Origin: an uncultured Acidobacteriaceae bacterium
GTDB taxonomy: Bacteria; Acidobacteriota; Terriglobia; Terriglobales; Acidobacteriaceae
Direction of reading: 5' to 3'
NCBI GenBank assembly: GCA_963821295.1
Contig: CAWGDB010000007.1
Coordinates: 254,557-318,556 of the forward strand
Length of the DNA stretch: 64,000 nucleotides
The notes below the pieces were generated by a model, which ran no database searches, was not told the origin of the DNA, and saw nothing but the letters and a program-made list of their open reading frames with translations. The position numbers and the translations under genes were made by a program. Every line of letters starts with the position of its first letter. The stretch's first letter is position 1. This document shows positions 51,199-60,028 of this stretch, in pieces.

Positions 51199-51387
51199 AT
51201 GAGTGCCGAGATTCAATTTGCGTTTGGGAGAAACCGTTGGCTGGCAGCGAAGAGCGCCTCGATTGGCGCAATTCAGAGCGGCAGCCTCGGCATTCAGGGA
51301 CACTTCGCAAATGCGCTCGCAGCGCTGTACATCGCTTGTGGCCAGGCTCGTGGACGGCAATCCGGGGAGCTGGTCGCAAATGGCTAA
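51199..51387 (+). pseudogene. relic fragment of an HMG-CoA-reductase-like gene
   Basis: The tail of ORF 51001..51387 reads ...SGSLGIQGHFANALAALYIACGQ. This matches the conserved class I HMGR block GS(I/L)GG.NAHAANIVTAIYIACGQD. No HMGR-like sequence occurs upstream, and the frame ends where the UbiA gene starts. Confidence 0.4.
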
Positions 51388-52300
51388 CCGCTGGTGGACT
51401 TACCAGCGCGAGCGTTTTCCAGTCTTCGCTCACACTCCAATAATTGCGGCCTTCAGCCTCTCCGCAGTCAGCTACTCGGCGTTGATACGTGGCGCGTACC
51501 ATGTCCCTGGGTGGAAGCCTTGTGTTGTAGCCTTTGCCAGTTCATTCCTTTTCTTCCTCCAGCTTCGGATTGCCGATGAATTCAAGGACTTCGAGGAAGA
51601 TTCGCTCTATCGGCCATATCGTCCTGTGCCGCGCGGCCTGATCACTCTTCGCCATCTCGGCTGGGTGTGGGCTGGCTCCATCGGTCTCCAACTTACGCTC
51701 GCGCTGTGGCTTGCACCGCGACTTATTATGTTGTTGCTGCTTCCCTGGCTATACCTCTGCCTGATGAGCAAGGAATTTTTCGCGCGGCGCTGGCTGAAGG
51801 CGCGACCCATTACCTACATGGTTACGCACATGGCCATCATGCCGCTGGTTGACCTCTACACCACATCCTGCGATTGGGTTCCCGCCGGTTTCGTTCGCCC
51901 GCCCCCCGGATTGCTGTGGTTTCTCCTCGTCAGTTTTTTCAATGGCATGGTGGTTGAAATCGGGAGGAAAATTCGTTCCCCTCAAGACGAAGAAACCGGA
52001 GTGGAAACCTACAGCTTCCTGTGGGGCCGGCGGAATGCCATCCTTGTATGGTTGGGCACGCTGGTTTGCACAGGCGGGTTCGCCTTTATCGCCGCTCGAG
52101 GCATCGGTTTTGCTCGCCCTGTCATTATTCTATTGCTGATTTTATTCTTAGCGGCGTTGGCAGTGGCGGTGTACTTTCTGCAAGGTGCGGTCGAAAAACG
52201 TGGCAAGTATGTCGAGACGATGGCCGGCGTTTGGAGTCTCCTCATGTATCTGAGCCTGGGCTTCATTCCGATGGTCTTGCGGCATTGGGGTGGGGCATGA
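51380..52300 (+). CDS. UbiA-superfamily intramembrane prenyltransferase
   Basis: ATG at 51380 (MANRWWTYQRERFPVF). First acidic motif plus RPxPxG: LRIADEFKDFEEDSLYRPYRPVPRG. Second acidic motif: RSPQDEETGVETYSFLWG. About 8 TM helices. Confidence 0.75.
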   Translation: MANRWWTYQRERFPVFAHTPIIAAFSLSAVSYSALIRGAYHVPGWKPCVVAFASSFLFFLQLRIADEFKDFEEDSLYRPYRPVPRGLITLRHLGWVWAGSIGLQLTLALWLAPRLIMLLLLPWLYLCLMSKEFFARRWLKARPITYMVTHMAIMPLVDLYTTSCDWVPAGFVRPPPGLLWFLLVSFFNGMVVEIGRKIRSPQDEETGVETYSFLWGRRNAILVWLGTLVCTGGFAFIAARGIGFARPVIILLLILFLAALAVAVYFLQGAVEKRGKYVETMAGVWSLLMYLSLGFIPMVLRHWGGA

Positions 52301-57422: not shown

Positions 57423-58415
57423 ATGCGGGTCGTTGATTGCAGTTCGGTTTCGGAAATCGCCAGCTCGACCGCCGCTGCACCCCTGCCGCCCTTCAACCCA
57501 TCGGACTTCGAAACCCAGCGCGCTGATCTTCACCTGCGTGCATTGTCAGACAGCAGCGGCGAAGTGGCGCGTTGCTCGCTATGGTGGAACCACGTCCCCG
57601 CCTACGAGCAACACCGAGTCGGCGTCATTGGACACTACGCCGCGACCAACGATGAAGGCGCTGCAGCCGTTCTGGCCACCGCACAGGAGCGGCTGCGTAC
57701 CGCCGGATGTACGCTCGCCATCGGTCCTATGAATGGGAACACTTGGCGAAGCTACCGCTTTATAACGGTGCGCGGTGCGGAGCCGATGTTTTTCCTTGAA
57801 CCGGCGAACCCCCCGGAATGGCCGCCCCAATTCGAAAGAGCAGGGTTCTCGTCGCTGGCATCCTACTTCTCGGCGCTTAACCGCGATTTGTCCCGTCCTG
57901 ATCCGCGCGTGGCCACGCTCGAAAAAAAGATTGCGGAAGCGGGGGTTGTGATTCGCTCGGCGAATGCCGACCTCCAGCGCGAACTGAAGAACATATATGC
58001 GGTGAGCCAAGTCTCGTTCCGGCACAACTTCTTGTACACCGAGATACCCGAGGCAGAGTTTATTGCCATGTACGAGCCCGTCTTGCCTATGGCGCGCCCT
58101 GAACTTGTGCTTTTTGCCGAACGGGCCGGCGAATGCGTGGGCTATCTGTTCGCCATCCCCGACTTTGCGTTGAAGGCCCGCGGCGATGATGTAAACACGT
58201 TCATCGTCAAGACCGTTTCAATTCTCCCGCATCCCGAACTGCGAGGCTTGGGCACATTGCTGGTGGCTCGGGTCCAGCAACTGGGTCGCGAGATGGGCTT
58301 CCGTCGCTGCATTCACGCGCTCATGTTCGAGAACAACGTCTCGCTCAACATCAGCCGCCATTACGCCACCGTGATGCGCAAGTACACGCTCTATTCGAGG
58401 GACCTCGCAAAATGA
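57423..58415 (+). CDS. two-lobed GNAT-family acyltransferase
   Basis: ATG at 57423, 2 nt after the upstream stop. C-terminal GNAT motif A: VSILPHPELRGLGTLLVARVQQLGREMGF. The N-terminal lobe is also GNAT-like (VGVIGHYAATNDEGAAAVLATAQERLRTAGC). Confidence 0.7.
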   Translation: MRVVDCSSVSEIASSTAAAPLPPFNPSDFETQRADLHLRALSDSSGEVARCSLWWNHVPAYEQHRVGVIGHYAATNDEGAAAVLATAQERLRTAGCTLAIGPMNGNTWRSYRFITVRGAEPMFFLEPANPPEWPPQFERAGFSSLASYFSALNRDLSRPDPRVATLEKKIAEAGVVIRSANADLQRELKNIYAVSQVSFRHNFLYTEIPEAEFIAMYEPVLPMARPELVLFAERAGECVGYLFAIPDFALKARGDDVNTFIVKTVSILPHPELRGLGTLLVARVQQLGREMGFRRCIHALMFENNVSLNISRHYATVMRKYTLYSRDLAK

Positions 58416-60028
58416 ATATCGCCGAGATCCTGTTGCAGCGCGCAGCAGAACTGGGCGGAAACGCGGCCATCGTCGATGTTCATCGAAATCGTGATCGATG
58501 CTTCAGGTTCCGGGAACTCGCTGCCGCGACCGCCAACGTCGCCGCCCAGATGAAAAGCGCGGGCCTCCAGCCGGGTGACGGCATTTTGCTGCTGCACCCG
58601 GTATCCGCGGAGCTCTATGTGGTCCTCATCGCGCTGTTCCGGTTGGGATGCGTAGCGATTTTTCTGGATCCATCCGCCGGGCGGGCACATATCGAGCGCT
58701 GTTGCGCGCTGTTTCCACCCAAGGCCTTTCTGGGCGGTCCCCGCGCCCAGTTGTTGCGGTGGACAATCCCGGCACTTCGCCGTGTTCGCAACGCGTTCTG
58801 TTTTGGTTGGTTTCCAGGTGCGCAGCGGCTGGAACTGCGCACCGATGCAGATGCTACGACCTCACCGGAGGTTTTTCCCGTTTCCTCCGCATCTTCTGCG
58901 CTGGTCACCTTTACCAGTGGCAGTACCCTAGAACCCAAAGCAGCACTTCGTACTCACGGCTTCTTGCTGGCGCAGCATCGGGCTCTGGAGGCAAGCCTTG
59001 CGCTACAACCGGGCAAGCGGGATCTCACAACCTTACCGATTTTTGTACTCGCGAATCTGGCTTCGGGTGTCACCAGCGTCCTCCCCGATGCGGATCTGAG
59101 ATCACCCGGCAAGATAGCTCCGCGGCCAGTGCTGGCGCAAATCGAACGGCACAAAATCGAAACCATCGCAGCGTCGCCCGCCTTCATATCGAGACTCCTG
59201 GACGAATGCGATCGGAGTGGCATCACAATGCCATCTTTGGCGAGCATCTACATGGGCGGCGCGCCGGTTTTCCCAGGACTTCTCCGCAAAGCAAAACAGT
59301 TTTGTCCGCAAGCCGAGATTACGGCTGTCTACGGATCGACCGAAGCCGAACCCATGGCCGAGGTGGCTCTCTCGGATATTTCCAGGGAAGACTTCGACGG
59401 CATGGAGCAGGGCAAAGGGTTGCTCACGGGGCGCCCAGTGCCATCGATTTCGTTGCGCGTCATTCGTGAGCAGTGGGGCGTCCCGATTTCACCGCTCGAT
59501 TCGAGGACCTTCGACCAACTTACGAGGGCTAGCGGAGATCCTGGCGAGATCGTAGTCTCGGGCGCCCACGTCTTACCCGGCTATCTCAACGGAGAAGGTG
59601 ATGCCGAGACGAAATTCGAAGTAGATGGCGCGCGCTGGCATCGCACCGGCGATCTGGGCTACCTGGATCCGACCGGCCGACTTTGGCTGCTCGGCCGGTG
59701 CCGCGGGAAAATCCAGGATGCACGGGGCTCGCTGTATCCGTTCGCGGTCGAGTGCGCCGCGATGCAGACCGCCGGCATTCGGCGGGCCGCATTGGCTGCC
59801 CTTGACAGCCGCCGTGTGCTGGCAATCGAAACTACAGAAGCTCTATCACGCGACGATATTCTGAAGTCTCTATCATGGGCGCAACTCGACGAAGTAGTGT
59901 TCTTGGATCATGTCCCCGTTGACAGGCGTCACAACGCTAAGGTTGATTACGTCGCGCTATTTCGCAAGCTTGACAGAGCGAACAGTCGTCGCCGAACTTC
60001 TCCGCGGAAGCCGAATGCCCGGCTGTGA
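58412..60028 (+). CDS. ANL-superfamily adenylate-forming ligase (acyl/aryl-AMP synthetase)
   Basis: ATGA overlap with the GNAT stop. Core motifs: VTFTSGSTLEPKA, AVYGSTEAEP and WHRTGDLGYLDPTGRLWLLGR. Basic C-terminal tail. Confidence 0.85.
   Translation: MNIAEILLQRAAELGGNAAIVDVHRNRDRCFRFRELAAATANVAAQMKSAGLQPGDGILLLHPVSAELYVVLIALFRLGCVAIFLDPSAGRAHIERCCALFPPKAFLGGPRAQLLRWTIPALRRVRNAFCFGWFPGAQRLELRTDADATTSPEVFPVSSASSALVTFTSGSTLEPKAALRTHGFLLAQHRALEASLALQPGKRDLTTLPIFVLANLASGVTSVLPDADLRSPGKIAPRPVLAQIERHKIETIAASPAFISRLLDECDRSGITMPSLASIYMGGAPVFPGLLRKAKQFCPQAEITAVYGSTEAEPMAEVALSDISREDFDGMEQGKGLLTGRPVPSISLRVIREQWGVPISPLDSRTFDQLTRASGDPGEIVVSGAHVLPGYLNGEGDAETKFEVDGARWHRTGDLGYLDPTGRLWLLGRCRGKIQDARGSLYPFAVECAAMQTAGIRRAALAALDSRRVLAIETTEALSRDDILKSLSWAQLDEVVFLDHVPVDRRHNAKVDYVALFRKLDRANSRRRTSPRKPNARL

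Follow-up and report, generated by a model that had tools for sequence, protein, structure and literature searches.

The stretch of DNA analysed here, hereafter the window, comprises 64,000 nucleotides of contig CAWGDB010000007.1 from an uncultured Acidobacteriaceae bacterium (assembly GCA_963821295.1), and at positions 51380-60028 it holds six closely packed genes on the + strand, which are a real operon that is nearly the same in at least ten bacterial phyla. Elsewhere, these genes usually follow a seventh one, which can be read as a fatty acyl-CoA reductase of the FcrA type and which survives in the window as a deletion relic. With a rough probability of 0.4, we take the region to be a derivative of a widespread, self-contained seven-gene lipid cassette that has lost its reductase, and whose product would be an amino-acid lipid based on a fatty alcohol.

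The operon and its conserved cassette

The five junctions between the six open reading frames (ORFs) are ATGA overlaps in three cases, an 8-nt overlap in one, and a 2-nt gap in another. Together with the remains of the seventh gene, the six ORFs are laid out as follows, L005 being the locus of a close relative that is described below.

51120..51261, +, retained upstream and 5' region of the deleted FcrA gene (blastn to L005 172-330, 78% identity)
51250..51387, +, FcrA relic: codons 292-323 (51250-51345) fused to codons 419-431 (51346-51384), stop at 51385-51387
51380..52300, +, UbiA-superfamily membrane transferase (PF01040), closest to O-alkylating enzymes
52297-52300, +, UbiA/Rph-like kinase junction: ATGA overlap
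52297..55008, +, ATP-grasp/middle domain/His-swivel phosphotransferase of the Rph/PigC/PEP-synthase family (PPDK_N, PEP-utilizers)
55001-55008, +, Rph-like kinase/DUF3419 junction: 8-nt overlap, ATGCGTAG
55001..56104, +, DUF3419/BtaA-like enzyme dependent on S-adenosylmethionine (SAM) (PF11899), candidate 3-amino-3-carboxypropyl transferase
56101-56104, +, DUF3419/membrane protein junction: ATGA overlap
56101..56790, +, membrane protein, N-terminal half (~aa 1-230), kinase-like, CdsA/DolK/VTE5/VTE6 superfamily (DUF92 matches, hhalign, motifs)
56791..57420, +, membrane protein, C-terminal half (~aa 231-439), polytopic, without assignable family (all-helical AlphaFold model)
57418-57425, +, membrane protein/GNAT junction: TAA-GA-ATG, 2-nt gap
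57423..58415, +, tandem (two-lobed) GNAT-fold acyltransferase (Acetyltransf_1, Foldseek)
58412-58415, +, GNAT/ANL junction: ATGA overlap
58412..60028, +, ANL adenylating enzyme of the fatty-acid CoA ligase type (PF00501, PRK09274; OleC-type secondary)

The six reading frames with their five junctions, as well as their grouping into a single translationally coupled operon, had been put forward in a preliminary description of the window, and both hold, since all the overlaps and the gap were verified and the synteny is conserved. The start codons agree with the N-termini of the orthologues, such as the UbiA (MANRWW...) and DUF3419 (MRSEAA...) proteins of locus L001. A consensus scan of positions 50800-60400 for promoters and terminators gave no signal above shuffled expectation, and the lack of such signals inside the operon fits a single transcription unit.

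The distribution of these genes was followed through the family of the fourth one, which counts 2,984 representative clusters at E <=1e-3 and 555 (50% identity) at E <=1e-30. A genome scan for this family, with one genome per species, yielded 80 loci, in which the other genes were located by tblastn. Collinear cassettes occur in Acidobacteriota (Terriglobia, Vicinamibacterales, and Blastocatellia), Cyanobacteriota, Planctomycetota, Gemmatimonadota, Gammaproteobacteria, Armatimonadota, and in Salinibacter and Salinivenus, and the cultured carriers include Roseinatronobacter sp. S2 (Alphaproteobacteria, on a plasmid) and Brevibacillus laterosporus B9 (Bacillota; NZ_CP011076, about 462.5-474.5 kb). 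The same gene order is repeated in dozens of genomes from many phyla, an arrangement far beyond chance, and 57-71 orthologues share the motifs of UbiA, of DUF3419, and of the ANL core as well as the swivel His. All the cassette proteins miss the equivalog cut-offs of NCBIfam, and the RefSeq names given to the Roseinatronobacter cassette are generic only, with two 'hypothetical protein' entries.

The standard order of the cassette is FcrA, UbiA, Rph-like kinase, BtaA-like enzyme, DolK-like membrane protein, tandem GNAT, and fatty-acid CoA ligase. Among the 54 loci with enough flanking sequence, 39 have all seven genes, with one of 410-445 aa directly upstream of UbiA, and seven have the six genes without FcrA. 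The preliminary description had drawn the unit as six genes and had proposed to look for them in other genomes. There, the six are indeed syntenic across phyla, most often behind a gene resembling that of HMG-CoA reductase (HMGR; HMG stands for 3-hydroxy-3-methylglutaryl), and the conserved unit has to be redrawn as seven genes, the seventh being the deletion relic upstream of UbiA in the window. An all-against-all clustering of the flanking ORFs of the 80 loci found no eighth conserved neighbour, and the conserved neighbours include no HMG-CoA synthase, isoprenoid synthase, methyltransferase, transporter, regulator, or OleB-like hydrolase. Thus, the cassette is self-contained.

Several loci depart from the standard order. 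The cassettes of L065 and L076 are complete but rearranged, with GNAT and ANL placed before FcrA (GNAT-ANL-FcrA), and that of L057, also complete, has an opposite-strand block ANL-FcrA-UbiA-Rph-like with GNAT adjoining ANL, whereas in L050 and L056 nothing but the genes of the membrane protein, GNAT, and ANL stays together. These rearranged loci suggest two sub-modules, one consisting of FcrA, UbiA, the kinase, and DUF3419, and the other of the membrane protein, GNAT, and ANL.

Other particularities concern single loci. In the Roseinatronobacter sp. S2 plasmid (NZ_CP121116.1, L085/L087), the circular record starts within the FcrA gene, hence the absence of this gene from the gene table, and the cassette adjoins lipopolysaccharide and glycosyltransferase genes. 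A few Acidobacteriaceae/Terracidiphilus loci (L001, L002, L020, and L021) have an alpha/beta hydrolase gene directly 3' of ANL (14000-14743 in L001), followed in L001 and L002 by a radical-SAM activase and glycyl-radical enzyme pair, an arrangement that is not conserved elsewhere. The UbiA gene of L072 (5277-6179), from a metagenome-assembled genome (MAG) of the Blastocatellia, contains an in-frame stop, which may reflect a pseudogene or an assembly error; a similar case in L085 (541-1434) is just the terminal stop codon of the range taken. Finally, the cassette proteins of L012, a MAG labelled Candidatus Methylomirabilota, are 70-79% identical to those of the Terriglobia-type copy of the window, a closeness far beyond the expectation for different phyla that points to an error of binning or to a recent transfer.

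The FcrA-type reductase and its relic

The gene at the 5' end of the cassette is labelled HMG-CoA_red by Pfam, and its best solved structure is an archaeal class I HMGR (6HR7, E 3e-81). The catalytic residues E559, K691, D767, and H866 (human numbering), the last one being the histidine of a conserved 'RAH', are invariant in all 49 cassette copies. Proteins resembling class I HMGR form a large bacterial and haloarchaeal clade that was described as FcrA by Grossi et al. in 2025 (ISME J; PMC11948995). FcrA does not reduce HMG-CoA, but reduces acyl-CoA of at least C14 to fatty alcohols with NADPH, and it differs from HMGR in having Glu instead of Ser684, a bulky residue instead of Leu862, and no HMG-binding lysine (PMC11948995). 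The 49 cassette copies likewise carry Glu at S684, Phe at L862, and no Lys at K735, a column that is filled by Ser in the HMMER alignment and by Met, Ile or Val in the MAFFT one, and these changes would remove the contacts with the HMG carboxylate. From the three signature positions, the 5' gene can be read as an FcrA-type fatty acyl-CoA reductase, a test that applies to the orthologues from relatives, the window holding the relic only. The HMG-binding lysine is printed as 'Lys795' in the description of FcrA (PMC11948995), probably a misprint, since the offsets given there (N. pharaonis Lys367 and Gly411) lead to human Lys735.

In the same study, FcrA is paired with FadD, and it often occurs without a wax synthase, so that it may serve other pathways, such as those of ether lipids; neither UbiA, DUF3419, and the other partner genes, nor Acidobacteria are mentioned there (PMC11948995). 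With an FcrA-type gene at its 5' end and a fatty-acid CoA ligase gene at its 3' end, the cassette would contain a module that converts a fatty acid into a fatty alcohol.

There is no intact FcrA gene in the window, where 45 codons survive at 51250-51384. It can be compared with L005, an Acidobacteria gp1 MAG with 88-92% aa identity in which FcrA is intact. Against this relative, blastn places two internal deletions of 858 bp and 281 bp (L005 331-1188 and 1279-1559), and tblastn with the L005 FcrA protein gives 87.5% identity over 32 aa of the relic (E 2e-14), plus 13 aa at the C-terminus. The FcrA of L001 also matches the relic region (E 2e-11), in which there is a weak match to Pfam HMG-CoA_red. 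Positions 51120-51261 correspond to the L005 sequence upstream of FcrA plus the first ~25 nt of the gene, and are the probable promoter and leader region of the operon. At the intact junction of L001, the FcrA-type gene overlaps UbiA by 8 nt, and in the window the old FcrA stop still overlaps the UbiA ATG by 8 nt. The relic lies in an open frame of 128 codons (51001-51387) that ends at the original FcrA stop, and translation of this chimeric ORF might preserve the coupling to UbiA.

The near-identical contig L003 has the same relic. Loss of FcrA from the cassette is recurrent: another uncultured Acidobacteriaceae MAG, L014, contains a different relic (codons 1-36 and 365-431, upstream of UbiA at ~5313), and L012, L022, L026, L032, L072, and L084 have the six genes and no trace of FcrA. 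In the window, the six remaining genes are under purifying selection, their ratio of non-synonymous to synonymous substitution rates (dN/dS) being 0.13-0.26 against L005 and 0.06-0.12 against deeper relatives. Their 8.6 kb contain no frameshift or premature stop, and all the start/stop overlaps are kept. Since the genes are intact and their dN/dS is low, the six-gene form appears to be a maintained variant and not debris.

The products of the six remaining genes

The preliminary description had assigned the six products to a UbiA-type transferase, an enzyme laid out like rifampin phosphotransferase, a DUF3419/BtaA-like enzyme, a VTE5/dolichol-kinase-type prenol kinase, a two-lobed GNAT, and an ANL ligase, and had suggested profile searches as a check. 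Five of these calls are borne out, whereas the fourth one holds at the superfamily level and for the N-terminal half only.

The UbiA protein matches PF01040 with 42.1 bits, above the curated cut-off of 34.2. Of the two Asp-rich motifs that bind Mg2+/diphosphate in this superfamily (NDxxDxxxD and DxxxD), the first one is DEFKDFEED, in which D66, D70, and D74 are present in 100% of 60 orthologues, as are R78, R81, and G86 after it, and the second one is an acidic, non-canonical variant, QDEETGVETY, with D203 conserved in 90%, E204 in 100%, and E205 in 98%. With a profile of 19 orthologues, the only relatives of solved structure to be recovered are DGGGPS (6M31, E 3.9e-5) and chlorophyll a synthase (E 0.0018), and the cassette UbiA would accordingly be closest to the members of the superfamily that form C-O bonds.

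The second gene encodes a protein with PPDK_N (217 bits) and the mobile His domain PEP-utilizers (78 bits), and its best solved structures are the Listeria entries 5FBS and 5HV1 (E 4e-60), which we take to be those of rifampin phosphotransferase. The Rph_4th domain is on record for its orthologues, and the swivel His851 is kept in 57 out of 57. It remains below every curated NCBIfam cut-off: 825 of the 883 bits of PRK06241.2-2, 317 of the 999 of Rph, and 293 of the 1300 of PigC. The third protein matches PF11899 (DUF3419) nearly along its whole length (231.5 bits, residues 9-359 of 367), with no relative found in NCBIfam or the PDB. It is a candidate SAM 3-amino-3-carboxypropyl transferase, and its motifs YAQxWEDA, SIASAGDN, and NLSDxFEY are conserved in 71 orthologues.

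The support for the fourth protein (439 aa) is indirect. The window copy has no Pfam or NCBIfam match even at E <=10, sequence and profile searches of the PDB gave no relative, and Foldseek of the full-length model against the PDB found nothing at E <0.1, the AlphaFold model itself being all helical with a predicted local distance difference test score (pLDDT) of 82.6. JGI labels many of its homologues 'phytol kinase' or 'Dolichol kinase', and among 28 diverse members of the family six match PF01940 (best 4.7e-5), that is DUF92, which we take to be the family of the phytyl-phosphate kinase VTE6. The motifs D..A...G..YG, KSxEGS, and EA.AW.GLDN..P are invariant in these 28 members. An hhalign comparison with a hand-entered C-terminal fragment of human dolichol kinase pairs D132..G139, KSxEGS, and LEA..DN..P (probability 89%, E 2e-6), which is a lead and not proof. 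The C-terminal half is more divergent than the N-terminal one, and in the Roseinatronobacter protein only the N-terminal 231 aa align. A prenol-kinase-like domain in the N-terminal half is thereby partly confirmed, at the level of the superfamily.

The fifth protein matches Acetyltransf_1 with 23.3 bits on its C-terminal lobe (residues 224-300), and its family has more than 2,000 members, of which a profile search returned close relatives only. The top of its Foldseek list (E 1e-7 to 1e-8) is made up of the tandem GNAT MAB_4324, MshD, FemX, and the C-terminal domain of MprF, even though these hits come from a poor AlphaFold model (pLDDT 67) and have TM-scores of 0.3-0.36. The sixth protein matches PF00501 (AMP-binding) with 145 bits; its best NCBIfam model is PRK09274, 'fatty acid CoA ligase family protein' (370 bits), and models of olefin beta-lactone synthetase come second, with 210 and 191 bits. 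The ANL motifs TSGST, YGSTEAEP, and WHRTGD, together with the A10 Lys510, are conserved in 63 orthologues.

A proposed lipid pathway and its rivals

In the pathway that we favour, the ligase would activate a long-chain fatty acid to acyl-CoA, and FcrA would reduce this to a fatty alcohol, a step that the window has lost. The lipid alcohol would then be phosphorylated, possibly to the diphosphate, by the DolK/VTE5-like membrane domain together with the His-swivel phosphotransferase, and the UbiA-type enzyme would couple the lipid to an acceptor that offers an oxygen nucleophile. The BtaA-like enzyme would add a SAM-derived 3-amino-3-carboxypropyl (homoserine) group, and the same ligase as before would provide the acyl-CoA with which the tandem GNAT N-acylates this group. 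Such a pathway should yield a phosphorus-free, membrane-bound lipid, ether- or ester-linked, with an amino-acid head group. In the window genome, the alcohol would have to be made by another reductase, be a prenol, or come from outside the cell. As the default alcohol of the cassette, a fatty alcohol made in situ is more likely than a salvaged prenol, because of the FcrA signature of the 49 copies and the fatty-acid CoA ligase type of the ANL enzyme.

Judging by its gene content, the cassette belongs to none of the known pathways that it recalls, even though its logic seems borrowed from each of them. As in the FadD/FcrA module, an acyl-CoA ligase goes with a class-I-HMGR-like reductase in which the catalytic E/K/D/H and the signature are kept; there, however, the alcohol passes to a wax synthase (WS/DGAT), which the cassette does not have, its partners being UbiA, the Rph-like kinase, DUF3419, the DolK-like protein, and the tandem GNAT (PMC11948995). 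Moreover, the cassette FcrA (~431 aa) has no Lad N-terminal domain, and its gene is deleted in the window. The ElbD ether lipids of myxobacteria, made by an enzyme with CoA ligase, ACP, reductase, and PlsC-like domains, similarly start from the activation and reduction of a fatty acid to obtain an alkyl chain, but the downstream enzymes are entirely unlike, the cassette having no AGPS or PlsC-like gene (PMC11948995).

The salvage of phytol by VTE5, VTE6, and VTE2 for tocopherol and phylloquinone in plants and cyanobacteria follows the same logic of a lipid alcohol, two phosphorylations, and a transfer by a UbiA-family enzyme, and the fourth protein is related to the same superfamily of membrane kinases. 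Contrary to VTE6, a DUF92 protein, the second kinase of the cassette would be a soluble His-swivel enzyme, and its UbiA is nearer to O-alkylating members than to homogentisate prenyltransferases. The cassette also has no cyclase, methyltransferase, or HPPD, and would use an alcohol of its own, probably non-isoprenoid. With the BtaA/BtaB system of the betaine lipid diacylglyceryl trimethylhomoserine (DGTS) it shares the DUF3419 family, in which a 3-amino-3-carboxypropyl group is transferred from SAM to a lipid hydroxyl. As the preliminary description had remarked, a BtaB methyltransferase is absent, both from the operon of the window and from the conserved neighbours of the 80 loci; the acceptor is unlikely to be diacylglycerol, and the amine would probably be acylated and not methylated.

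The best solved relatives of the cassette UbiA, that is, DGGGPS from the GGGPS/DGGGPS route to archaeal ether lipids, and chlorophyll synthase, also work in the membrane and form a C-O bond from a lipid diphosphate, but the similarity is weak, the second Asp-rich motif of the cassette enzyme is DEExG, and its donor may not be a prenyl diphosphate. The second gene has the three-domain layout and the catalytic swivel His of Rph and PigC/RedH. Contrary to these, it is no enzyme of antibiotic resistance or of prodiginine synthesis; it is always found in a lipid operon, and therefore it presumably acts on a lipid alcohol or phosphate, or else on an acceptor in need of activation. The preliminary description knew of no characterised pathway with this gene set, and neither such a pathway nor a curated family name for the cassette was found. 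Full-text literature searches gave no description of it, the FcrA paper being the only relevant one (PMC11948995).

Several points weigh against the proposed pathway. Every one of its steps is inferred from the chemistry of the families. UbiA donors are, to our knowledge, allylic prenyl diphosphates or phosphoribosyl pyrophosphate (PRPP), and we know of no precedent for a saturated alkyl diphosphate in this role. In decaprenyl-phosphate phosphoribosyltransferase the lipid phosphate is the acceptor, and the lipid phosphate of the cassette could likewise be the acceptor of UbiA. The kinase assignment of the fourth gene is weak, given the DUF92 matches in six of 28 members, a hand-entered reference sequence for hhalign, and no match of the window protein, and the membership in FcrA is inferred from three signature positions, of which the K735 column depends on the alignment. 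FcrA is dispensable in at least eight lineages, so the alcohol does not always come from FcrA and could be a prenol. Lastly, the GNAT model is of low confidence (pLDDT 67), and an aminoacyl-tRNA donor, as in FemX and MprF, would be as compatible with this protein as acyl-CoA.

We also consider, as a bolder but unlikely version, an undescribed bacterial ether-lipid route in the archaeal style, where a fatty alcohol made by FcrA would be turned by two phosphorylations into an alkyl diphosphate, etherified onto an acceptor by the DGGGPS-like UbiA, and provided with an N-acylated, SAM-derived homoserine head group to give a new class of phosphorus-free ether aminolipids. If true, the cassette could be the missing ether-bond-forming system of aerobic Acidobacteria, suspected producers of branched glycerol dialkyl glycerol tetraethers (GDGTs), since it is common in Terriglobia, Vicinamibacteria, and Blastocatellia.

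The strongest competitor, which we nevertheless think unlikely, is the isoprenoid pathway of the preliminary description. Here, a prenol such as phytol, geranylgeraniol or a polyprenol would be converted by the VTE5-like kinase and the dikinase into a prenyl diphosphate for UbiA, followed by the homoserine head group and its N-acylation, with the fatty acid/FcrA arm limited to providing the acyl or a second chain. Allylic diphosphates are what UbiA enzymes normally require, the two proteins closest to the UbiA profile both use C20 prenyl diphosphates, and the kinase-like domain resembles DolK, VTE5, and VTE6. Furthermore, in the window and in the seven well-flanked loci without FcrA, the other six genes persist with no alcohol from a cassette FcrA, and this dispensability is what keeps the prenol alive as a starting point. 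However, in the standard cassette the partner of the fatty-acid CoA ligase is an FcrA-type reductase (PMC11948995), the signature residues show that the 'HMGR-like' gene is probably no HMG-CoA reductase, and neither the conserved neighbours nor the rest of the window include a prenyl-diphosphate synthase or any other isoprenoid gene. The absence of a conserved isoprenoid gene, together with the ordinary housekeeping content of the window, argues against a prenol as the default. The earlier proposal is thus weakened as regards prenol salvage, and supported in that the pathway is an undescribed one.

A doubtful alternative is that the cassette makes a low-abundance specialised metabolite or signal, of the N-acyl-homoserine or lipo-amino-acid type, which the two membrane enzymes would anchor or export. 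The combined chemistry of ANL, GNAT, and SAM 3-amino-3-carboxypropyl transfer could give N-acyl homoserine derivatives, the Rph-like relatives PigC and RedH act in secondary metabolism, and the patchy distribution, with a plasmid copy in Roseinatronobacter, resembles horizontal transfer. Against this, two polytopic membrane enzymes and a fatty-alcohol module are more in keeping with a lipid, the conserved neighbours of the cassette include neither a transporter nor a regulator, the family of the fourth gene is very large, and the cassette is vertically persistent in Terriglobia.

It is improbable that the window holds a decaying remnant, in which the loss of FcrA has inactivated the pathway and the six genes are becoming pseudogenes. 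Two deletions did remove FcrA, and dN/dS against the close L005 exceeds that against deeper relatives; but higher values at short distances are a common effect of time dependence, and both ranges are still well below 1. Besides the uninterrupted frames and overlaps, the lost gene has left behind its upstream region and its coupling junction, and the six-gene form is found independently in the distant L012, L014, L022, L026, L032, L072, and L084. The least credible reading takes the 5' gene for a true HMGR, with mevalonate as a building block (as in the anhydromevalonyl transfer of fungal SidI/SidF) or as part of a non-canonical isoprenoid route: Pfam and the PDB do place this gene in class I HMGR with its catalytic residues conserved, and olefin beta-lactone synthetases, which the ANL enzyme secondarily resembles, act on beta-hydroxy acids, but the signature of FcrA, which does not reduce HMG-CoA (PMC11948995), practically rules it out in all 49 copies, and the conserved surroundings include no HMG-CoA synthase, mevalonate kinase, or decarboxylase.

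As for the surroundings of the operon, an M61-like peptidase gene (49156-51000) lies directly upstream, and four serine carboxypeptidase S10-like genes form two tandem pairs (35582-38877 and 45744-48844) on either side of an amidohydrolase gene and a gene for a 1,169-aa protein with CarboxypepD_reg and an outer-membrane beta-barrel (38874-42386). These genes are a peptide-scavenging neighbourhood unrelated to the cassette. Farther away, glycine cleavage system genes (T protein and two P-protein subunits, 15540-20502) and, just upstream of them, a methylmalonyl-CoA mutase gene (13651-15066) represent an ordinary housekeeping context.

The copy of the window is a derived, reductase-less form, and yet it points to a very widespread and tractable pathway. 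Its carriers range from soil Acidobacteriota, cyanobacteria, and planctomycetes to halophiles and a cultured Brevibacillus, yet no name or paper was found for the cassette. The cassette also offers a concrete genomic role for FcrA, that is, for the bacterial 'class I HMGR' genes in genomes without the mevalonate pathway, which were recently re-assigned to FcrA and noted outside wax-ester synthesis. If the alcohol is indeed phosphorylated and transferred by UbiA, this would be new lipid chemistry with a bearing on the ether lipids of aerobic bacteria, a question that the cultured Brevibacillus laterosporus B9 and Roseinatronobacter sp. S2 make directly testable.

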